From a virus (Duplodnaviria > Heunggongvirae > Uroviricota > Caudoviricetes), in the IMG/VR virus record IMGVR_UViG_2654587568_000017: a stretch of 16,265 bases of DNA; one strand, written 5' to 3'. The stretch's first letter is position 1. Each line of letters opens with the position of its first letter. The notes under the pieces are model-generated. The model made no database searches. It was given only the letters and a program-made list of their open reading frames with translations, and had not been told where the DNA came from. Made by a program: the position numbers and the translations under genes. This document shows, piece by piece, positions 2,049 to 16,265 of the stretch.

Positions 2049-2132
2049 GTGGTTATCCCCATCGACAAATCGAGAACACAACAAACGCTGCTGCGAATAC
2101 CACCCCCAGAGTTACGATTGCATCAGGCCAGC

Positions 2133-2891
2133 TCATTGATTCACCTCCTGCCTGTCGTCCGGCATTCGCTCACTACAGCTTATCCAACCATCCGGAGTTA
2201 CCGGAGAGTTGCCCGATAGTGCATTCTGCTCCAGTGATGCTTTTACAAACCACGCTGCCTGAACTATAACGCCATGAATCCAGCGCAAATCAGCATCGCG
2301 ATCTTTCTTTTTCATCTTTTCGCCACTTAAGGCCTTGCTTATGTGGCTGCGTACCAGGTCTTCATGTAATTCCTTCGCCTCCTCAATGGTGAAACCACCA
2401 GGCAGAAGAGCCGGAGTTACCGGAGAGCTGGTTGACGCTTCCGGGATTTCCCGAAAATTATTGGTTGACGAATTCTTGCTTTCCCGAAAGTTTCCGGACT
2501 GAAGCATGGCGGTGCGGCAGGCGTTCCATATTTCGGCAGCAATATCGCGCTCGCTATCGGTTAATTTGTACGTGGAAACATAGCCAGAGAGCATTTCTAC
2601 GTTTTCCGGAGTTGCTTCTTCCGGCACTACCGGCGCTGGCGGGGCGGCAAATAGATATCCGCCAAAGTCAGGAAGCTCTCCAATGGCCTGTACGAACTTT
2701 TGTTTGCCTACGTCAACTCCTAATGGGTAATGAGCTATAATCTTTGCCACCGGCTCTGCTTCCAGCGATACCAGTGCAATTCGTGCCAGTTCTTCCGCTT
2801 CTTCTGCTGGCAGTACAACGTTGCTACCCGGTCCGTATGTTTCGCGCCACTGCTTGATTGTCAGCAGTCGCCCTTTGGTAATAGTGATCAT
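2133..2891 (-). CDS. Hypothetical phage protein (252 aa) with internal SPVTP repeat
   Basis: ATG at 2891-2889 overlaps the upstream stop (ATGA). Contains a perfect 17-bp direct repeat (2192-2208 and 2411-2427) encoding a duplicated SPVTP motif. C-terminus VTPDGWISCSERMPDD is reminiscent of a short conserved prophage C-terminal domain; unverified. Confidence 0.6.
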   Translation of the reverse strand: MITITKGRLLTIKQWRETYGPGSNVVLPAEEAEELARIALVSLEAEPVAKIIAHYPLGVDVGKQKFVQAIGELPDFGGYLFAAPPAPVVPEEATPENVEMLSGYVSTYKLTDSERDIAAEIWNACRTAMLQSGNFRESKNSSTNNFREIPEASTSSPVTPALLPGGFTIEEAKELHEDLVRSHISKALSGEKMKKKDRDADLRWIHGVIVQAAWFVKASLEQNALSGNSPVTPDGWISCSERMPDDRQEVNQ

Positions 2892-3403
2892 GCCGCGTTT
2901 CCTTCTTTCTTATTAACAATCACACCGTCATATATTTCATTAAGGTGCCCTCTCAACTCCATGCGCCTTAATGCAGATAACATGTAATCGCATTCAACCT
3001 GCTTATTCCCAGTAAATGGCTTATCGTCAGGATTACCCCAACAGCAATTACCCCTGGGCCATCCATGTACTTTCCGTACTCTTCCGTTAACAACGTGAAG
3101 TAATCCCCAGCCGGGAGGTAAATCCTCAACTGAAATAATTTCCGGCTCACTAATAAAGAATCGCCAGTCGCCCATGCCAAGTGAGGGATTTTTACGGAAA
3201 CGCTTTTTTCTATCTGCCAACAAGTCAGCACGAGAACACTTCGCCTCTATCAGGCATGATGCTGAATTTCTGAATCCCATAGCATCTGGCTGTTCTCCGG
3301 TACTGGTTACAGCAACAAAGCGGTCATGAAAGCAAACCTTGAACCCGTTGCGCTTAAGGAACTTGTACGCAATCTGACAGAGTTCGTGGTGTGTTAACGC
3401 CAT
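2888..3403 (-). CDS. Putative PD-(D/E)xK-fold nuclease-like protein (171 aa)
   Basis: ORF-track 2888..3436 starts with TTG; ATG at 3403-3401 has AAGGAGA 6 nt upstream and sits 1 nt after the Ea22-like stop. Motif GEQPD ... CLIEAK matches the PD...(D/E)xK signature; fold assignment is inference. Confidence 0.55.
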   Translation of the reverse strand: MALTHHELCQIAYKFLKRNGFKVCFHDRFVAVTSTGEQPDAMGFRNSASCLIEAKCSRADLLADRKKRFRKNPSLGMGDWRFFISEPEIISVEDLPPGWGLLHVVNGRVRKVHGWPRGNCCWGNPDDKPFTGNKQVECDYMLSALRRMELRGHLNEIYDGVIVNKKEGNAA

Positions 3404-3404
3404 A

Positions 3405-3890
3405 TCACTCTCCTTTGATGCGAATGCCTGTTGCAATGCTGTTTATGATGCTGTCAGTGCATGGGGTAGAAAGCTGGGCATCTCCAGCAATTTTCATGAC
3501 CTCAACATCTGCATATCGAATACCGAGGTGTATCAGACCGGCTATGCCTGACTTAAGCCGAGCATTTTCCATAAATAGAACTTTTGCCCGCTGTTTTTCT
3601 GCTTCAAGCTCAACGCGCAGCTTCCCTACCGTTAGCGCAATATCCTCGTTCTCCTGATCGCGGCTTTTGATGTATTGCAGGTTTCTTTCCCGTTCATCCA
3701 GCAGTGCCAGCACGGTTTCTGGTCCGGTCAGAAATTTGAAGGCGTTGAGCGCATCAATATCCACACCGTAATCTTTAAGTTCCTGTTCACTTAACAAGTC
3801 ATCATCAGCTGGCAACATTAACAGGCGTTCCATTGCTGGAATTGCACGTTCCGCCACCTCACGCAGTGCCTGGTAATTAATTTCGCTCAC
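3405..3890 (-). CDS. ea22: Ea22-like phage protein (161 aa)
   Basis: GTG start at 3890-3888 with AAGGAGG SD. N-terminus SEINYQALREVAE and C-terminal LLDERERNLQYIKSRDQENEDIALTVGKLRVELE ... GIRIKGE match my recollection of lambda Ea22-family proteins. Confidence 0.7.
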   Translation of the reverse strand: MSEINYQALREVAERAIPAMERLLMLPADDDLLSEQELKDYGVDIDALNAFKFLTGPETVLALLDERERNLQYIKSRDQENEDIALTVGKLRVELEAEKQRAKVLFMENARLKSGIAGLIHLGIRYADVEVMKIAGDAQLSTPCTDSIINSIATGIRIKGE

Positions 3891-4393
3891 TGGTTGCCTC
3901 CTTTGCGAAGCTGGGCAGCAAAGTCAACTAACCACTCAGTCATTTCAACCTTCCCTACCAGGTCTGAACCAGGGTACATACAGCAATCACTCTGCGCCGC
4001 TTTGAAATCCTTATACTCATATTCTTGGGCCACCAGATTTTTTGCAGCTTCTATAGCAGCATCCACCCCCTGCGCCCGGACTTCAGCCAGGAAAGCATCA
4101 GTGGTTGGCGTTTCAGGTATCTGTCTCCTCATCCGTTCTATTGCATGATTGAACCCGAAGTCTTCCGCGAGAGATACGTCATCCATATTGTCATTGTCAT
4201 CTTCAATATCCCGTGATTCTGGAATTGCAGACTTTATTCCCGCATTCTCCGCTGCCAGCGCCGCGCACTTGGCCTCAAGAGCGGCAACCACTTCCTGATG
4301 GTCTTTGTACTTAACGTATGAGCCGGAGATGTCATCACCTTCGGTGTTTAGCCATGCGTCATTGCAATTCACTGCGTAGGTTCTGATGCTCAT
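3887..4393 (-). CDS. Hypothetical acidic protein (168 aa)
   Basis: ORF-track 3887..4450 starts at TTG; ATG at 4393-4391 with GGGAGAG SD, ATGA overlap with the upstream small ORF and GTGA overlap with the Ea22-like gene. Asp/Glu-rich (DIEDDNDNMDD). Confidence 0.5.
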   Translation of the reverse strand: MSIRTYAVNCNDAWLNTEGDDISGSYVKYKDHQEVVAALEAKCAALAAENAGIKSAIPESRDIEDDNDNMDDVSLAEDFGFNHAIERMRRQIPETPTTDAFLAEVRAQGVDAAIEAAKNLVAQEYEYKDFKAAQSDCCMYPGSDLVGKVEMTEWLVDFAAQLRKGGNQ

Positions 4394-4575
4394 GTTGATG
4401 CTCTCCCGCCCCTGACAGACGCCAGGCCAGTCAATAAAGTATCCGCACAATGCCTACCCTCAGACGTGCGCGCAGGATAAATGCCGTTATGACCCGGCAA
4501 AATATATGCTACCCATTCATCTTGCGTTGCCTGTTCCGCCGCCTCGCGCAGTGCCTGATAGTCAATCTTGCTCAC
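4390..4575 (-). CDS. Short ORF carrying an Ea22-type N-terminal module (61 aa); possible recombination remnant
   Basis: GTG start with AAGGAGG SD. The 45 bp around this start (4541-4585) is a near-copy of the Ea22-like start region (3861-3905). Protein begins SKIDYQALREAAEQATQDEW then becomes low-complexity. Confidence 0.3.
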   Translation of the reverse strand: MSKIDYQALREAAEQATQDEWVAYILPGHNGIYPARTSEGRHCADTLLTGLASVRGGRAST

Positions 4576-4876
4576 TGGCAGCCTCCTTTGCCGGGATTTC
4601 TAACTTTTGAGTGGTTGTATCAAATTCAAACAACTTAACCACGTCATCAAACAGGACATAATCACCATCAGGATTTTCAGTCATATCTGCGCCACAATCC
4701 TGACCGCACGAGTCGCAACCATCCATATCAAGCTCGTATCGCTTCAGGTTTGCGATATTTGATAAATTCAGCGCCAGTACAGCCAGGTCATAAACCTCTT
4801 CGGCAGTGACATCGCTGTTCAGTCCCATTTCATGGCGATATATGATTTTTTCTACTCGTTGTTTTGTGATCGTCAT
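4562..4876 (-). CDS. Hypothetical protein (104 aa)
   Basis: ORF-track start 4900 is TTG; ATG at 4876-4874 has GGAGTG upstream. An alternative ATG at 4828 lies 1 nt after the upstream gene's stop. Acidic, with CDSCGQDC motif. Confidence 0.45.
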   Translation of the reverse strand: MTITKQRVEKIIYRHEMGLNSDVTAEEVYDLAVLALNLSNIANLKRYELDMDGCDSCGQDCGADMTENPDGDYVLFDDVVKLFEFDTTTQKLEIPAKEAASEQD

Positions 4877-5147
4877 TTTTCTCTTCACTCCGATATACAA
4901 GGATTACTACACCCCCTCTGCTGATTGCGCGAGCTGGATCCCCTGGTTCCATGCCGTCAATTCCGAAGGCTTCGGAAAACGCATTCATTGCCTTCTGGCG
5001 TTCATCCTGCTTACGGCGTTTATTCCATTTTTTCAGGAACAACAGCGACAGCCACCGTCCGCTGCAGAACACGATGTAAAAATAACCAAGGAGCGCCAGG
5101 CCGACATTCAGGGCCGTTTCTATGGTTAGTTGTGAGTCAGTTGCCAT
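4830..5147 (-). CDS. Small putative membrane protein (105 aa)
   Basis: ATG at 5147 with AGGT-type SD. One strongly hydrophobic segment (LNVGLALLGYFYIVFCSGRWLSLLFL) followed by a basic stretch KKWNKRRKQ, consistent with an N-in single-pass topology. Overlaps the next gene by up to 47 nt. Confidence 0.45.
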   Translation of the reverse strand: MATDSQLTIETALNVGLALLGYFYIVFCSGRWLSLLFLKKWNKRRKQDERQKAMNAFSEAFGIDGMEPGDPARAISRGGVVILVYRSEEKNDDHKTTSRKNHISP

Positions 5148-5385
5148 TTCTTACCTGTTTAAGTAACTGGTTGAACATAACACTTAGGGGATTGCTGTAT
5201 CCAAACGGCAGATTGTTTACGCAGTACAGAATCATTTTGTTTTTTTCTCCAGTTCGTACTATTAACCCATTCCACAATAACCGTGATAATTCATTACTGA
5301 TAGAAGTTGCGCTTCTTCCAAGTGCGAGGGATATATCTTCTCTACTGCAATCTGGATTTTCCTGGATATACTCGATAACGGTCAT
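5137..5385 (-). CDS. Small winged-helix-like DNA-binding protein (82 aa)
   Basis: ORF-track start 5427 overlaps the upstream gene by 32 nt; ATG at 5385 has AAAGGGA SD and follows the upstream TAA. EDISLALGRSATSISNELSRLLWNGLIV looks like an HTH/winged-helix recognition unit. Confidence 0.45.
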   Translation of the reverse strand: MTVIEYIQENPDCSREDISLALGRSATSISNELSRLLWNGLIVRTGEKNKMILYCVNNLPFGYSNPLSVMFNQLLKQVRNGN

Positions 5386-5395
5386 GTGGTCCCTT

Positions 5396-5977
5396 TTACT
5401 TAATATCTGTTTCGGATTGCATGCCATGAGTATTCATTTCGTTAATAATTTCATCCAGAAGGATTTCAAGCCCTTCTCGACCCATATCTGAAAGAATGAA
5501 ACCTTTATCAGGGGAAGTAGTGAGCATTTTCTGATAAAGAAACAGCGCTCTTCCCATTCCTTCAGCTTCGCCGTATTTTTGAATTAAATTCCATTCAATA
5601 TACTGTTGTAAGGCAAATCGAATGGGGCCGGGATATATCGTCATAAACCCATACATCCCGTTATATACCACGGCGTGTTCAGTTGTTCCGTGTTCATTCA
5701 GGATATCAATTGTGCCGTTCTTGTCTTCTTCTTCGTTGATGAATGTCGTCACATACAACCATCGCCACTGAGCAACCTTCATCTCAACCGGAAGTTTACC
5801 CAGTAATCCTGCTTCGTCGGCTTGCGCCAGACACTGAAGGATACGTAAACCTCGCACATTAGGAGTATCGAATTCTCCGGCATCCAGACGACGTATGGCG
5901 TCGTGATAATCAATCGTCATACTGCCAGTTCGTATACCATTGGCTGTTGCTTCAGCCTGGAATTCATCGTATTGCAT
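5396..5977 (-). CDS. Hypothetical protein (193 aa)
   Basis: ATG at 5977 with GAGGAA SD placed inside the end of the upstream gene; no recognisable motif. Confidence 0.6.
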   Translation of the reverse strand: MQYDEFQAEATANGIRTGSMTIDYHDAIRRLDAGEFDTPNVRGLRILQCLAQADEAGLLGKLPVEMKVAQWRWLYVTTFINEEEDKNGTIDILNEHGTTEHAVVYNGMYGFMTIYPGPIRFALQQYIEWNLIQKYGEAEGMGRALFLYQKMLTTSPDKGFILSDMGREGLEILLDEIINEMNTHGMQSETDIK

Positions 5978-6859: not shown

Positions 6860-7408
6860 TCACCATTGGTATTGGTTCTTCCGCAGAAGAGCTTCGCGAG
6901 ATAAGGGGCAAACTTGTTGAGATGCGTCATGGTGTTGCTGCTCCTCACTTTTTGGTTGCTCCGGAGGAGTAACCTCACCAGTTAACAGGCACATCGGATC
7001 GCAGCCAAGAATATTTGCCAGTGGGATAAGCATACTGATAGTTGGTTCATACTCTCCGCTCTCCCACTGGATGATAATTTCTTCATCGAGATCGAGCAGC
7101 CTGGCGAGTTCGGCGGTTGTTAAGCCGCAGGCTTCGCGTTGGGTGCGAAGGTTAACCAGCCAGCTTTCAGGGAAGGATTGTTTTTGTTGTGCAGGAGAAG
7201 CAGCAGATAGAGCATATTCATGGATAAATTCCATTACCTCAATGCCCAGTTCCTTTGAGCGAGCACAATCCAGAAGATGGAATGTGCGTACAGCACTTAG
7301 CAAATTTGCAATATTTAATGCAAAGGAATCAAGTTCTAAGCCCTTAAGCGTAACACAGCCGCAGTTGATAAAATTAGTTGTTTCTGGAGTTGCTTTTAGT
7401 GTCTTCAT
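6860..7408 (-). CDS. XRE-family HTH-domain protein with ~90-aa N-terminal domain of unknown function (182 aa)
   Basis: ORF-track start 7438 is TTG; ATG at 7408-7406 with GGCGGA upstream. Central segment LRTQREACGLTTAELARLLDLDEEIIIQWESGEYEPTISMLIPLANILGCDPMCLL is a Cro/C1-type HTH; N-terminal part unrecognised. Confidence 0.6.
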   Translation of the reverse strand: MKTLKATPETTNFINCGCVTLKGLELDSFALNIANLLSAVRTFHLLDCARSKELGIEVMEFIHEYALSAASPAQQKQSFPESWLVNLRTQREACGLTTAELARLLDLDEEIIIQWESGEYEPTISMLIPLANILGCDPMCLLTGEVTPPEQPKSEEQQHHDASQQVCPLSREALLRKNQYQW

Positions 7409-7461
7409 ATATCCGCCAACAATTTTAAATTGAATCAAATCAAGTTATAATTGATGGTGCG

Positions 7462-7490
7462 ATATTATGTTTTGGGAAACAGGCTGTCAA
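7462..7490 (-). promoter_or_regulatory. Putative sigma70 promoter (PL-like) reading leftward into 6860-7408
   Basis: On the minus strand: TTGACA (plus 7490-7485), 17-nt spacer, TAATAT (plus 7467-7462). The ACTTGATTT motif shared with the cI-cro region lies just downstream (plus 7436-7444). Confidence 0.45.
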
Positions 7491-7554: not shown

Positions 7555-8244
7555 CTAACCAAATCTGTTTATGTTGAATGGTACTGATGAGATCACTTTA
7601 GACTGGATATAAAGCAGAGCTAACCCCTCTTTTTCGATGCTCCATGGTTGATAATTGGGGTTATCAGATAACACCATGATTTTGCTTCCAATTTTTTGAA
7701 GCCTTTTCACGTAGCATTCTCCATCAAAACAAAATGCATAAATACCATCGCCATCAAAATAAGTTACTGTCTTATCAAGAAAAAGAAGGTCGCCAGGTGA
7801 GATTGTGGGAGCCATACTGTCTCCTCTGGCGTTACCTATTTCTATATTTTTGAATGCCCGATTTCCAACAAGACGTCGGGCATATTCAGGATCAAGTTCT
7901 ATTGAGCGCACTACATCTATCAAGTCACCACGGACATGAGTTCCATCACCGCAACTAAACTCAACATCAAGGACATTAAATACGACGCTATCTGTTCTTG
8001 TCTGGTGTTTCTCTTGCGAGGAAAAGGTTGGTGAGGAGTCTTCACCTAAGAACCAGGATTGTGGATAACCGCTAATCTCTGATAAATGCGCGAGCTTATC
8101 ACTCCGTGGAAATGTTTTTCCTGTTGTCCAGTACTGCACTGATTGCGCACTCACACCTAACTTGCGGGCCAGTTGAGCCTGAGTCCATCCTTTTGCTTTC
8201 AGCATCGCGGCTATTCGATTTTCCGTGTTTTTGACGTTCTTCAT
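7555..8244 (-). CDS. cI: CI/LexA-type prophage repressor (HTH plus S24 peptidase domain)
   Basis: ORF-track start 8250 is TTG; ATG at 8244 has AGGA upstream. N-terminal HTH (GWTQAQLARKLGVSAQSVQYW), C-terminal Ser/Lys dyad (GDSMAP ... YVKRL), possible Cys-Gly autocleavage site (SCGDG, UmuD-like). Confidence 0.85.
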   Translation of the reverse strand: MKNVKNTENRIAAMLKAKGWTQAQLARKLGVSAQSVQYWTTGKTFPRSDKLAHLSEISGYPQSWFLGEDSSPTFSSQEKHQTRTDSVVFNVLDVEFSCGDGTHVRGDLIDVVRSIELDPEYARRLVGNRAFKNIEIGNARGDSMAPTISPGDLLFLDKTVTYFDGDGIYAFCFDGECYVKRLQKIGSKIMVLSDNPNYQPWSIEKEGLALLYIQSKVISSVPFNINRFG

Positions 8245-8377
8245 GACCAAATCCTGTGGGTTTCTTTACAAGGATAAATCTTTACTTGATTTTAGTGTAT
8301 TCGATCCTTTTGTAACTTGCATGTTAATTTAAACTTGATGTATTCTTGATTTATAAAGTTAATATTGGTGCTTTGTT
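8245..8377. promoter_or_regulatory. Divergent promoter/operator region between the repressor and Cro-like genes
   Basis: 133-bp AT-rich gap between divergent genes with three CTTGAT copies (8286, 8335, 8346), two of them 11 bp apart, and a TAATAT hexamer at 8361-8366. Exact operators and promoters not resolved. Confidence 0.55.
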
Positions 8378-12026: not shown

Positions 12027-12036
12027 GGTGACAGCG

Positions 12037-12936
12037 ATGATGACGATTGACCAACGTGAGAAACAAACAAGACTACAGGCGCGAATGGATGAGTTACGGG
12101 CAGAAATGGATGAGTTACGGGCAGAGATTGCATTTGCTCAGAAGGGCGAAAAGCCATGGCCTTATCGTTCCTGCCTGATGCGTGAAGGTCGCGGATATTG
12201 CGAAAAACACGGTAAATATCGTACGCATATACTGGTGTGGATCGATCGTAATGGCGAGGACAGAGAAAAAATTTCATGCTGCCCTGACTGCTTGATCGCT
12301 GAGGCCAGTGATTTGACCATGGAACTGTCGTCCCTCAAGGCGGAAGAACTGACTGATAACGCCGGAATTGCTCTGCGTTTTCGGGACTGCGAGTTTGATA
12401 ATTATCTGGAGGTTAATCCTGACGCAGCCAGAAATCTTGCGGCCTGTCGCCGCTATGCGGAGAACTGGCCAGATATGCTGGAGAACGGTACCAGTCTTGT
12501 TATGACCGGCAGTTGCGGTACCGGGAAAAATCATCTGGCGGTATCAATGGCAAAACACATCATCCGTAACTATCTGGCCAGTGTGGAGATCACCGACGTG
12601 ATGCGCCTTACCCGGGCTGTGAAAAACTGCTGGCGGAATGACAGTGAAAAAACAGCGGATGACGTCATTGAGCATTATGCGTCACTGGATTTGCTGATTG
12701 TCGACGAAGTCGGCGTTCAGTTTGGCAGTGCGGCTGAAATGGCCATTTTGCAGGAAATTATCAATGCCCGGTATGAGGGTATTTTGCCAACTATCCTGAT
12801 CAGCAACCTTTCACCGGAAGAATTGTGGGCGTTCATCAGTCCCCGGATTGCCGACAGGATCACCGATGGCGGGCGCAACTGGTTGTCGTTTAACTGGCCC
12901 AGCTACCGTTCTCGTATCGGAGGTGTTGCCGCATGA
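12037..12936 (+). CDS. DnaC-like helicase loader (IstB-type AAA+ ATPase)
   Basis: ORF-track start 12028 is GTG; ATG at 12037 has GAGGTG SD. Walker A (GSCGTGKNHLA) and Walker B (LLIVDEVG). N-terminal region has a perfect 21-bp tandem duplication and a Cys cluster. Confidence 0.85.
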   Translation: MMTIDQREKQTRLQARMDELRAEMDELRAEIAFAQKGEKPWPYRSCLMREGRGYCEKHGKYRTHILVWIDRNGEDREKISCCPDCLIAEASDLTMELSSLKAEELTDNAGIALRFRDCEFDNYLEVNPDAARNLAACRRYAENWPDMLENGTSLVMTGSCGTGKNHLAVSMAKHIIRNYLASVEITDVMRLTRAVKNCWRNDSEKTADDVIEHYASLDLLIVDEVGVQFGSAAEMAILQEIINARYEGILPTILISNLSPEELWAFISPRIADRITDGGRNWLSFNWPSYRSRIGGVAA

Positions 12937-14333
12937 CCAGCCAGAACACCCCGGCATGGCGTAACGATGACCTGGAAGGCGCTGTCATCGGTGCGTTTTT
13001 TCTGCGTGGGGCCGATCCGGAAGTGATGGATATTCTGGCCACACTTCCGGCGGATGTATTTTTTGTGCGTCAGTACCGGGATATTTACGCGGGGATTTGC
13101 AGACAGGCTCGCATATCCGGCGTCATTGACCCCGTACTGCTGTGCAATGAGATGCCGGAACTTGCCCCGGTGATTACCGACACCGGACGCAAAACCTGGG
13201 TGAAGTCTTCACTGGAGCACTATGTCGCAGCGTTGCGGCGCAATGCCGCACTGCGCGATGCAGAAAAAACACTGACTGAAGCATTACAGAATTTACGTGA
13301 TGCGTATACCTGTGAAGCAGCCGAGGATGCCCTGAAGGATGCGCAGAACATGATGGCCTCACTGTCGACCGGAAAGGGCGTCATTCAGCCGGTTCACATT
13401 GATGATGTCCTTCCGGAAGTGGTCGACCGTGTTGAATGCCGCAATCAGGGACTGGAGAAATCCAGGGCGCTGATGACCGGTATTGATGAACTGGACGCAA
13501 AAACGGGCGGTATGGAGCCCGGAGACCTGGTATTCATTGCCGCCCGTCCTTCGATGGGGAAAACCGAACTTGCGCTGGACATCATCGACAAGGTGACTGA
13601 GCAGGGGCATGGCGTGCTTCTGTTCACCATGGAGATGGCGAACATCCAGATTGGTGAACGTATGGTGTCTGCTGCCGGTGGAATGCCGGTATCCCGTCTT
13701 AAGTCTGTTGCCCGTTTTGAAGATGAAGACTGGGCGCGTTTCTCGCAGGGCGTGGGACGAATGACGGGGCGTAATATCTGGATGGTGGACCAGGCAAACC
13801 TGACCATTGATGAGATATGTGCAACCACGAAGCACCACCGGATGAAACACCCGGAAACGGCGCTGGTTGTGGTCGATTACCTCGGCCTGATTAAAACCCG
13901 CAGCACGGGGCGTCACGACCTTGCTGTGGGGGAAATCTCAAAGGGACTTAAAAGCCTGGCAAAATCCGGCGGTTTTCCGCTGATTGCTCTGAGCCAGCTC
14001 TCCCGCGGCGTGGAATCCAGACCCAATAAACGCCCAATGAACTCGGACCTGAAAAACTCCGGGGAAATCGAGGCGGATGCCGACATCATTCTGATGCTTT
14101 ACAGGGATGAGGTATACAACCCGGAAACTCAGGCCAGAGGCATAGCAGAAATCAACATCACGAAACAGCGTAATGGCACGCTCGGGACCATTTACCGGCG
14201 TTTTCATAACGGACATTTTCTGCCTGTGGACCAGGAGAGTGCCCGGGTTCTTTCCACACCCATGACGCCGGGCAATCCGCGCAGATACAGCAATAACCGC
14301 ATGTCGGGCAGTAAAACGGAGCGTTTATTTTGA
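12933..14333 (+). CDS. DnaB-family replicative DNA helicase
   Basis: ATG at 12933 with GGAGGTG SD, ATGA overlap with the loader stop. Walker A (ARPSMGKTELALD), Walker B (VVVDYLGLI), and ALSQLSRGVESR ... DLKNSGEIEADADIILMLYRDEVYN typical of DnaB C-terminal domain. Confidence 0.9.
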   Translation: MTSQNTPAWRNDDLEGAVIGAFFLRGADPEVMDILATLPADVFFVRQYRDIYAGICRQARISGVIDPVLLCNEMPELAPVITDTGRKTWVKSSLEHYVAALRRNAALRDAEKTLTEALQNLRDAYTCEAAEDALKDAQNMMASLSTGKGVIQPVHIDDVLPEVVDRVECRNQGLEKSRALMTGIDELDAKTGGMEPGDLVFIAARPSMGKTELALDIIDKVTEQGHGVLLFTMEMANIQIGERMVSAAGGMPVSRLKSVARFEDEDWARFSQGVGRMTGRNIWMVDQANLTIDEICATTKHHRMKHPETALVVVDYLGLIKTRSTGRHDLAVGEISKGLKSLAKSGGFPLIALSQLSRGVESRPNKRPMNSDLKNSGEIEADADIILMLYRDEVYNPETQARGIAEINITKQRNGTLGTIYRRFHNGHFLPVDQESARVLSTPMTPGNPRRYSNNRMSGSKTERLF

Positions 14334-14587
14334 ACAACAGAGCAATCACTGTTTCACCGGAACAACTTCGTCGGCAGGCGCAGGAGATGCTTCGTTGTGC
14401 TGAACAGATGGAAAAAACGAGCGTGGCAAAGGATACGCTCCGCAAGCAGCTTACTCCGGCGCTGCGTGATCTGCTGCTGGCAAAACACCGCACACAAAAG
14501 GCGGTGGATGAGCTGGTGGATTGCGTGGCGGAACTGGAAGGCCAGGTAAGCCAGTTTGAAATACTGGTGAAGGAGTTTACTGCGTGA
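14330..14587 (+). CDS. Hypothetical small charged protein (85 aa)
   Basis: TTG start overlapping the helicase stop (TTGA), weak SD; composition looks protein-like and helical, but the non-ATG start lowers confidence. Confidence 0.3.
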   Translation: MNNRAITVSPEQLRRQAQEMLRCAEQMEKTSVAKDTLRKQLTPALRDLLLAKHRTQKAVDELVDCVAELEGQVSQFEILVKEFTA

Positions 14588-14891: not shown

Positions 14892-16265
14892 ATGGTACTT
14901 TCTGATTGTTATTCATGGGCTAACGAGCAGTTTGGACATGCCCGTCTCGGTGATCCGCGTCGTACACGACGCCTTGTGTCACTGGCCTCTTCTCTCGCTC
15001 AGCATGCAGGTCTTTCTATTGTGAAATCATCCCAGTCCACTGCTCAGGTTGAAGGTGCGTACCGCCTGATACGTAACCCGTCTGTGTCCCCGCAAGCCAT
15101 TGCCGAAGCCGGATTTACCGCCACTGTAAGGGCATGTGAGGCTCATCCGCTGCTCCTCGCGCTGGAAGACACCACCACCATTAACTTCAGTCACAGTACG
15201 GCATCTGATGACCTGGGGAATACCACCACTAACCCGAAGACGCGCGGGCTGCTGGCTCACTCTGTCCTGATGTACGCCCCCGACAGCGCCCTGCCAGTCG
15301 GTCTTATCGAACAGCAGCGCTGGAGTCGTGCCACGGACACCTACGGTGTTAAGCACCAGCGAAAAGAACGTCCCTATGAAGAAAAAGAAAGTTACCGCTG
15401 GCAGCAGGCTTCGGAGCGCATGGCCGAACGGCTGGGGGAGATACAGAAACGGGTAATCACTGTCTGTGACCGGGAAGCGGATATCTGGCATTACCTGCAT
15501 TATAAAGTCAGCCACGGGCAGCGCTTCGTGGTGCGTGCAGCACAGAATCGCCGGCTGGAAGAAGCACCCGGCAAGCTCTTCGAACTGCCGGAAGTCCTGG
15601 CAACCGCGGGAAGCCACACGCTGAATGTGATGCAAAAAGGCGGGCGGGCAGCCCGCCAGGCCCGGATGTTCATCAGTTACAGCGAAGTCAGCATAAAAAA
15701 TCCCGACAACAGCGGCCAGGCGCTCCCGCTCACGTATGTCTGTTGCCGGGAGCAGGCAGAGGACGGCGCCTGCTGGCATCTGCTGACGTCAGAAAAAGTG
15801 GCGAGTGCCGCCGATGCGCGACGTATCGTCAGCCATTACGAGCGACGCTGGCTGATAGAGGAATACCACAAGGCGTGGAAAAGTGGTGGTACATGTGTGG
15901 AATCGCTGCGAATGCAGACCCGGGATAACCTCGAGCGCATGGTGGTTATCAAGGCGTTTATCGCGGTGCGGGTGCTGGGCCTGCGGCAGGGCGGTATCAG
16001 TGAAGAAACACAAAATGACAGCTGTGAGAAAATACTGACGCCGACAGAGTGGAAACTGCTGTGGGTTAAGCTGGAAGGAAAACCGCTTCCGTCACAGATG
16101 CCGACACTGAAATGGGCCTGTCTGAAACTGGCGAAACTGGGGCGATGGCATGACAGCAAACGCACCGGTCGCCCCGGTTGGGTAGTCATGTGGGATGGCT
16201 GGTTCAGACTTCAGGATATGGTTGAGGGTTACCTGGTGATGAAGTCTCTTGATCAGGAGATCTGA
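14892..16265 (+). CDS. tnp: Transposase, IS4 family, IS50/Tn5-like (457 aa)
   Basis: Collinear similarity to Tn5 transposase as I recall it: GDPRRTRRLV, VITVCDREADIWHYL, RFVVRAAQNRR, YERRWLIEEYHKAWKSG, NLERMVVIKAFIAVRVLGLR, GRWHDSKRTGRPGW. Confidence 0.9.
   Translation: MVLSDCYSWANEQFGHARLGDPRRTRRLVSLASSLAQHAGLSIVKSSQSTAQVEGAYRLIRNPSVSPQAIAEAGFTATVRACEAHPLLLALEDTTTINFSHSTASDDLGNTTTNPKTRGLLAHSVLMYAPDSALPVGLIEQQRWSRATDTYGVKHQRKERPYEEKESYRWQQASERMAERLGEIQKRVITVCDREADIWHYLHYKVSHGQRFVVRAAQNRRLEEAPGKLFELPEVLATAGSHTLNVMQKGGRAARQARMFISYSEVSIKNPDNSGQALPLTYVCCREQAEDGACWHLLTSEKVASAADARRIVSHYERRWLIEEYHKAWKSGGTCVESLRMQTRDNLERMVVIKAFIAVRVLGLRQGGISEETQNDSCEKILTPTEWKLLWVKLEGKPLPSQMPTLKWACLKLAKLGRWHDSKRTGRPGWVVMWDGWFRLQDMVEGYLVMKSLDQEI

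Follow-up and report, generated by a model that had tools for sequence, protein, structure and literature searches.

The window analysed here is a 16,265-nucleotide stretch of viral DNA (IMG/VR virus record IMGVR_UViG_2654587568_000017), and a gene on its minus strand (2888-3403) encodes a 171-residue protein that very probably adopts a nuclease fold with its catalytic site intact. On the evidence of its sequence and of a structural model, the protein is a member of an unnamed phage-borne family, sister to the MmcB-like (DUF1052) proteins and the archaeal Holliday junction resolvases. We keep this family apart because the thresholds for PF06319 and PF01870 were not reached and family-specific motifs are present.

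A PD-(D/E)xK nuclease encoded next to a 252-residue protein (2133-2891) had been proposed from the letters of the window alone. The features on which this original prediction was built were all present, on the minus strand: the coordinates of the two open reading frames (ORFs), a 1-nucleotide gap upstream, an ATGA overlap downstream, a perfect 17-bp repeat, and the motifs GEQPD (residues 36-40), CLIEAK (50-55) and GNCCWGN (118-124) of the 171-residue protein. The length of 171 residues is counted from the ATG of ORF 2888-3403; a longer ORF starting with TTG extends to 3436. Upstream, the TGA stop of an Ea22-like gene (3405-3407) is separated by the single base 3404 (T) from the nuclease ATG (3403-3401), and AAGGAGAG stands just upstream of this ATG. 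Downstream, the nuclease stop and the start of the 252-residue gene overlap as ATGA at 2888-2891.

AlphaFold2 modelled the nuclease from 34 homologues with a predicted local distance difference test score (pLDDT) of 86.7 and a predicted template modelling score of 0.81. The helices (H) and strands (E) of the model, H5-18, E23-26, E41-45, E48-54, H58-64 and E80-85, form the alpha-beta-beta-beta-alpha-beta core of the PD-(D/E)xK superfamily, with D40 entering strand 2 and E53-x-K55 lying on strand 3. Foldseek found a single significant match to this model in the PDB, namely 3dnx (E 4.6e-6), and in BFVD it found phage models, several of which are named 'MmcB-like DNA repair protein'. The structure 3dnx was also matched by profile A2 of 40 diverse relatives (E 1.6e-4), with D40, E53, K55 and the SRxDFxxDxK motif aligned. 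Among the sequence searches, the relationship was significant only with this profile; the PDB search with the single nuclease sequence returned noise only. The PHROG matches of the protein were phrog_9263 and phrog_631, both of unknown function, and a phrog annotated 'DNA repair protein' was matched faintly.

The proposed active site comprises E7 (a variable position), E37, D40, E53 and K55, and is followed by the motif S57-R58-x-D60-(F/L)61-x-x-D64-x-x-K67-x-x-R70. In an alignment of 132 family representatives of ordinary length, most of these residues were close to invariant: E37 was found in 131/132, D40 in 132/132, E53 and K55 each in 132/133, D60 in 133/133 and D64 in 132/133, and K67, R70 and R81 were counted 132 times each. 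The acidic position of helix 1 (E7) was E or D in 84/122 members. The near-invariance of the full catalytic set in diverse members argues that catalysis is under selection. The Cys/Trp-rich C-terminal half, which had been put forward as a further feature of the protein, did not hold up as a feature of the family: both cysteines of GNCCWGN are unconserved in the family alignment, and N119 and W122 alone are common. In one representative of the family, P0151, E53 and K55 are gone (RVHVVLSRSDF) and D40 and D60 are kept; it may be inactivated or repurposed.

To summarize, the structure prediction and fold search that the original prediction had suggested as a check gave a restriction-endonuclease-like fold; its D/E/K motif residues are near-invariant among homologues, and the protein matched no known non-nuclease family. 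The PD-(D/E)xK reading was thereby borne out. The ORF is also more than a chance reading frame, given its 308 word-indexed homologues and the 3,238 family representatives found at 50% identity with E ≤ 0.001 (2,419 with E ≤ 1e-10).

Distribution of the family and mosaicism around the gene

The nucleotide sequence of the nuclease gene was found in 928 of 5,426 complete E. coli genomes (about 17%), at 1,297 places, 248 of them on plasmids. The carriers include many prophages converting to Shiga toxin (Stx) 1 or 2 as well as putative phage-plasmids, and tblastn matched the nuclease in 642 phage records, many Stx1a- and Stx2a-converting phages among them. Positions 2100-3450 of the window are 100% identical in prophages of E. 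coli O55:H7 RM12579 and other strains. The plasmids carrying the gene are about 60-100 kb long (for example, NZ_CP085066.1 and NZ_CP130557.1) and may be phage-plasmids; on one of them, L014, the gene lies near NikA/MobC-like and HicAB genes and has no Ea22 gene upstream. Truncated or frameshifted copies, annotated as pseudogenes, were seen in E. coli prophages (L019, 1063-1515; L020, 1969-2147), which is consistent with dispensability of the gene in resident prophages.

Distant members are found in virulent phages, beside replication genes. In Ackermannviridae, Vi01_091c lies directly upstream of the gp61 primase gene, and in MAR10-like vibriophages MAR10_062 comes directly after the genes for a primase/helicase and an SF2 helicase; both proteins keep all core residues. 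Homologues of Vi01_091c occur in 364 phage records versus 360 for the adjoining primase, and the two are also closely matched by host (nuclease/primase: Salmonella 164/164, Klebsiella 44/45, Dickeya 19/19, Serratia 10/10). These nearly equal counts indicate that the nuclease is a core gene in Ackermannviridae and not a sporadic one; the Vi01-like phages of this family are used in biocontrol. Members from temperate phages sit in early operons, in the exo-xis region, in a nin-like region or beside int. Distant temperate-phage members, whose contexts are mostly short contigs, were likewise found in early operons, either adjoining integrase or ahead of RusA; no partner recurred among them.

We compared ten independent contexts that encode the identical nuclease protein, among them exo-xis-type, nin-like and plasmid settings. 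The ATGA overlap downstream of the nuclease gene is present in 10/10 and the Ea22-like gene at a 1-nucleotide gap upstream in 9/10, and the downstream ORF is 61, 106, 172, 188, 243, 252, 302 or 401 codons long. Block mapping delimited a 99%-identical core at 3426-2751, that is, the nuclease gene with 23 nucleotides upstream and about 140 nucleotides downstream. In L007, L012 and L020, the flanks of this core are either unrelated or no more than 91-94% identical. This block ends at 2751-2757 in L007, L011, L012, L015 and L020, while L014 shares little beyond the nuclease gene itself (3416-2879).

Two conserved segments on the minus strand border the exchanged part. The upstream homology arm is an Ea22 coiled-coil segment (3594-3716), 91-97% identical among loci with different slot contents, and block mapping placed the downstream arm in the conserved 5' segment of the DUF551-type gene (2749-2891). 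Both arms persist in L018 (E. coli 1332KP), which lacks the nuclease gene and retains the 2749-2891 segment at 94% identity. In the slot equivalent to window positions 2892-3403, between Ea22-like and DUF551 genes, this locus has a 63-residue hypothetical ORF (1646-1837), which shows that the slot holds alternative cassettes. A query from which the nuclease gene had been removed, meant to reveal an empty site, found alternative cassettes and decayed copies only, and no contiguous junction. Taken together, the Ea22-like gene, the slot gene and the DUF551-type gene appear to be a shuffling module whose conserved flanks would allow exchange by homologous recombination, and the pattern around the nuclease gene reads as classical lambdoid mosaicism. 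The expectation of a variable locus near xis is thus in line with the data, as the gene lies in a mosaic part of the leftward operon.

A remark on phage 933W in PMC8614690 can be read as describing the insertion of a gene in ea22. We rejected such an origin for the present gene, as an insertion splitting one ea22: the 252-residue gene starts independently, with a conserved N-terminal module of its own, genes of this type stand independently behind other slot genes, and the alignments of Phi24B Ea22 are confined to the Ea22 N-terminus and the SPVTP/DUF551 start. The Phi24B Ea22 variant itself (L004 2830-3735, vb_24B_6c) aligns with the N-terminus of the Ea22-like protein of the window and, from ...LEAELVSQTYK on, with DUF551-type proteins of the type seen in L011 and L018 (...LEAEPVSQTYN). 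It may be a deletion fusion, formed by loss of the C-terminal part of Ea22, the slot gene and the N-terminal part of the DUF551-type protein, the reverse of the insertion reading.

Proposed role of the nuclease and alternatives

We propose that the nuclease gene would be transcribed early from the leftward (pL-type) operon and that its product, probably an oligomer, would be a small DNA endonuclease that depends on metal ions and falls in the MmcB-like/AHJR-like branch. The enzyme would cut branched or damaged DNA, for example junctions, forks, flaps or lesion-containing intermediates, and this cutting would serve replication, recombination and repair of the phage. A role as structure-specific repair or recombination endonuclease on branched or damaged phage DNA has, in our judgement, about an even chance of being correct. 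Pfam scans of the leftward ORFs detected no Exo/YqaJ, Bet/RecT, Gam or RecE domain, in agreement with the earlier statement that exo/bet/gam and recET genes are lacking in the left operon; with no exo/bet/gam, the nuclease is the only recognisable candidate DNA-processing enzyme in the left arm of this prophage. Non-canonical recombination had been one of the functions offered for it, and this function, or repair, fits best. Pure accessory cargo, also offered, is a poor fit for a core gene that stands beside the primase gene in Ackermannviridae.

Several observations weigh against the proposed role. The 171-residue protein had zero matches in Pfam (E ≤ 0.1), NCBIfam and PADLOC, and PD-(D/E)xK folds are also used in restriction, defence and homing. 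In lambdoid phages, the nuclease gene is a dispensable, patchy and exchangeable cassette. RusA and the nuclease gene occur in the same phage (L009, L024), which counts against a simple resolvase role. Finally, our literature searches found no study of this nuclease family and no biochemistry for any member.

A narrower version of the proposal is that the family is the phage counterpart of MmcB, a dedicated nuclease for processing damage and crosslinks that is made early for replication from a damaged template. We regard it as unlikely. If true, the nuclease would help prophages that are induced by DNA damage, including Stx phages under mitomycin C or quinolones, and would be a fixed replisome accessory in Ackermannviridae and MAR10-like phages. 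The family would then be a new class of phage replication-coupled repair nuclease that influences the yield of Stx phages after genotoxic induction.

A homing element, too, would produce the mosaic pattern described above, and we therefore considered a selfish, homing-type endonuclease that cuts Ea22/DUF551 alleles lacking the nuclease, so that repair copies the gene and short flanks into them. Such an activity would explain the spread of the nuclease and the local mosaicism: the 99% block between diverged flanks in L007, L012 and L020, the nearly gene-only match in L014, the alternative 63-residue ORF in the L018 slot, and the identical nuclease in exo-xis, nin-like and plasmid contexts; moreover, PD-(D/E)xK homing enzymes are known. 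However, ordinary lambdoid mosaicism at conserved linkers explains the same pattern, and only alternative cassettes were found in the slot, with no contiguous empty site. The nuclease also has no additional domain with which to bind a long DNA target. Among Ackermannviridae its gene is as widespread as that of the primase and has a fixed position, and it forms part of the replication module in MAR10-like phages. Homing genes, by contrast, are sporadic, and this core status in virulent phages speaks against homing as the general lifestyle of the family. We consider homing distinctly improbable.

A nuclease acting in exclusion, defence or against the host, which would degrade host or competing-phage DNA or serve the prophage as an abortive-infection effector, is improbable to a similar degree. 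Accessory genes are known to vary in the region that separates xis from the recombination genes, the nuclease gene is patchy among E. coli prophages, and the fold is common to restriction enzymes and the CRISPR ancillary nuclease Can2. Yet a comparison of the nuclease, the 252-residue protein and six other leftward ORFs with PADLOC-DB 2.0 returned only generic helix-turn-helix (HTH) matches, to the 192-residue ORF, and no conserved sensor, regulator or immunity partner was found in the compared contexts. Within the leftward early operon, where the nuclease gene lies, no promoter exceeding chance expectation can be assigned to this gene alone; it has the same GC (guanine plus cytosine) content as the flanking genes and, in virulent phages, is a core gene of the replication module.

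Still less probable is a developmental modulator like the exo-xis genes (ea22, orf60a, orf61, orf63), in which DNA binding by the protein, without cleavage, would bias the choice between lysis and lysogeny. The nuclease gene sits in the midst of Ea22-like genes, reports exist that ea22 favours lysogeny (PMC7093339, PMC8614690), and representative P0151 lacks E53 and K55. However, the catalytic set is near-invariant, being kept in 131-133 of about 132 diverse members, and the nuclease is also found in strictly virulent phages, which take no lysogeny decision.

The gene is labelled 'hypothetical' everywhere, and the family has no Pfam, NCBIfam or PADLOC model. Its MmcB/Hjc-like assignment gives a concrete hypothesis for standard substrates and a better annotation for thousands of phage genomes. 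If the nuclease processes damaged or branched DNA, it could affect the replication of Stx prophages after treatment with DNA-damaging antibiotics; otherwise, the result is a solid, unsurprising gain in annotation within a known superfamily and no new kind of system.

The 252-residue neighbour and the leftward operon

That the 171- and 252-residue proteins form a two-component system of a nuclease and a specificity or regulatory subunit is highly unlikely: the ATGA overlap in all ten contexts would fit it, as would the finding that, in several mosaics, the nuclease gene is accompanied by the first ~47 codons of the gene downstream, but the downstream protein varies from 61 to 401 residues, with or without DUF551, beside an identical nuclease, the 252-residue protein here is a deletion derivative, DUF551-type genes also stand behind other slot genes and are far more widespread (2,860 genomes were matched by a query with both genes versus 928 by the nuclease alone), and distant nuclease homologues have no DUF551-type neighbour. 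The coupling of the pair, which the original prediction had emphasized, is thus not that of a conserved system, since the partner changes, distant members have unrelated neighbours and the DUF551 core is lost here.

The 252-residue protein is instead best described as a decayed member of the DUF551-type mosaic proteins and not as a dedicated partner of the nuclease, judging from its domain remnants and relatives. Its sole Pfam signal is DUF551 (PF04448), with 24 bits (cut-off 22) over profile positions 1-16 of 68. It consists of an N-terminal module (residues 1-47), a variable middle, two SPVTP linkers, an optional module and DUF551 positions 1-16. Its close relatives are almost all 295-313 residues long and have a complete PF04448; the exact 252-residue form accounts for only a minority, a cluster with 401 members. 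In alignment A3, the full-length forms extend about 50 residues past GWISCSERMPDD, to ...HWMPLPEPPQEVxx. The DNA identity to a 302-residue relative (L009; 99.9%) breaks off at window position 2158, and the last codons of the 252-residue gene (QEVNQ) and the ATGA-coupled small ORF after it resemble the natural 3' end of a full-length gene, which indicates an internal deletion of the DUF551 core. The AlphaFold2 model of this protein was unusable (mean pLDDT 35.9), its alignment being shallow and made of near-identical sequences, and a PDB sequence search with it gave no match.

The perfect 17-mer CCGGAGTTACCGGAGAG occurs in this gene at 2192-2208, in the SPVTP linker ahead of the DUF551 remnant, and at 2411-2427, in the SPVTP linker at residues 156-160; the copies are 219 nucleotides apart and lie within a 20-nucleotide match of 95% identity. 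A variant of 172 residues (L007) has one copy and lacks exactly the 219 nucleotides between the copies, so that the repeat marks the border of an optional 219-nucleotide module. The repeat can therefore be taken as a recombination or deletion junction that encodes the SPVTP duplication, and not as a regulatory element. Next to it lies an imperfect duplication (2429-2492; 31-nucleotide copies at 2429-2459 and 2462-2492, 33 nucleotides from start to start, 77% identical), which codes for a repeated NFRE/NNFRE segment.

The N-terminal module of the 252-residue protein (2749-2891) recurs within the operon in a 112-residue ORF (4562-4900, minus), as MTITK...AEE..LA.LAL, and PHROG 3323 and 60 are matched by both proteins; this duplication could promote rearrangements. 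A small ORF (2055-2136, minus) is ATGA-coupled to the stop of the 252-residue gene. Its product, MSWPDAIVTLGVVFAAAFVVFSICRWG, is hydrophobic and resembles a membrane peptide. The ORF stops 5 nucleotides ahead of the ATG at 2048, where the DUF4222 gene most likely really starts. In L009, full-length DUF551 genes are followed by a related start (ATGATCTGGCCTGAAGCA...).

The ORF map and the Pfam and PHROG scans identify the window as the left arm and the immunity/replication region of an E. coli lambdoid prophage. On the minus strand, the left arm begins with an integrase gene (75-1361), an excisionase-like gene (1395-1649) and the DUF4222 gene (1806-2084), which precede the 252-residue DUF551-type gene without DUF551 core (2133-2891) and the MmcB-like/Hjc-like nuclease-fold gene (2888-3403). 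Then come the Ead/Ea22-like gene for 161 residues upstream of the nuclease gene (3405-3890; Pfam PF13935, E 4.2e-31), a second Ead/Ea22-like gene (3887-4450), a DUF4752 gene (4830-5147), a gene for a MarR-like winged HTH protein (5137-5427; weak match to a Ren-like exclusion PHROG) and one for a 192-residue XRE-HTH protein (6860-7438; weak PADLOC RmrA/HTH matches). Several further minus-strand ORFs of the left arm have no assignment. The second Ea22-like gene looks split (3887-4575, minus): a 61-residue ORF (4390-4575) corresponds to the Ea22 N-terminus (MSKIDYQALREAAE...), and the remainder is an overlapping 187-residue ORF, called as 168 residues in L008 and L015. The split is also present in these two loci, and could reflect a frameshifted pseudogene or two genuine genes.

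Next comes the immunity region, with an S24/HTH cI-type repressor gene (7555-8250, minus); beyond it, on the plus strand, follow Rha/Ash-type regulators and then the replication genes, with a DnaC-like loader (12028-12936), a DnaB-like ORF assigned from sequence (12933-14333) and a small ORF (14330-14587). An IS4-type transposase ORF, also assigned from sequence, runs off the end of the window (14892-16265, plus). This IS4-family-like element after the replication genes may have interrupted the right operon ahead of the nin region.

A pL-like promoter candidate for the leftward operon lies at 7462-7490 on the minus strand (TTGACA-17-TAATAT, 10/12 matches). The sole terminator-like site with a long T run (7543-7527) is upstream of this candidate, just downstream of the cI-like gene, and the minus strand between the candidate and xis has only weak terminator-like sites. 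Since shuffled sequence has promoter-like sites at least as often as this region, a separate promoter for the nuclease is not supported, and the gene pair is most likely part of the early leftward transcript. GC content across the pair is 0.46-0.52, matching the adjoining genes, and neither it nor the promoter and terminator scan gave a sign of foreign origin.

Comparison with known systems

The 252-residue neighbour of the nuclease compares with the DUF551-type mosaic proteins (P22 EaA, CPS-53 YfdS and the Phi24B Ea22 variant V2). It has in common with them the N-terminal MITITK...EEAEELARIAL module, the SPVTP linker and the DUF551 start (GWISCSERMPD), but lacks about 50 residues of the DUF551 core.

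For the nuclease itself, T7 endonuclease I, T4 endonuclease VII, lambda Rap/NinG and RusA offer a comparison by analogy only, in the proposed removal of branches from phage DNA during replication or recombination, as no sequence or family relationship to any of the four was detected. T7 endonuclease I is a PD-(D/E)xK enzyme. Closer are the archaeal resolvases Hjc and Hje (PF01870, AHJR clan), which have the same minimal core with an acidic residue in helix 1, PD and ExK. Weak Hjc matches were found for 24 of the 40 relatives in profile A2, and the profile itself matches 1hh1, 4tkk and 2eo0 at E 0.2-0.5. In contrast to Hjc, the helix-1 acid is found in only 84/122 members of the nuclease family, which has an extra C-terminal helical region; the window nuclease has neither an above-threshold Pfam score nor a strong structural match to this group, and some phages have its gene together with RusA.

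The closest known proteins are those of the MmcB-like family. 3dnx (SPO1766) is the structure of DUF1052/PF06319 (PMC3424549), a family that was linked to archaeal Holliday junction resolvases in 2005 (PMC1189080), and in Caulobacter, MmcB, a PD-(D/E)xK endonuclease under SOS control, confers protection from mitomycin C and cisplatin (PMC9578287). Sub-threshold matches to PF06319 (E ≤ 1, best 2.9e-4) were obtained for 13 of the 40 relatives, whereas the window nuclease has no match to it at E ≤ 0.1 and is below the gathering threshold. The nuclease family has its own GMGDWRF and LPxGWGLL motifs and a C-terminal AExxxLxSALRR helix, and is phage-borne, whereas DUF1052 is chromosomal and found mostly in alpha-proteobacteria, with SOS regulation in the case of Caulobacter MmcB. 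Nevertheless, the two families are of similar size (about 150-170 residues), have the extended motif D...ExK-SRxDFxxDxK in common, and are structurally equivalent in the comparison of the nuclease model with 3DNX.

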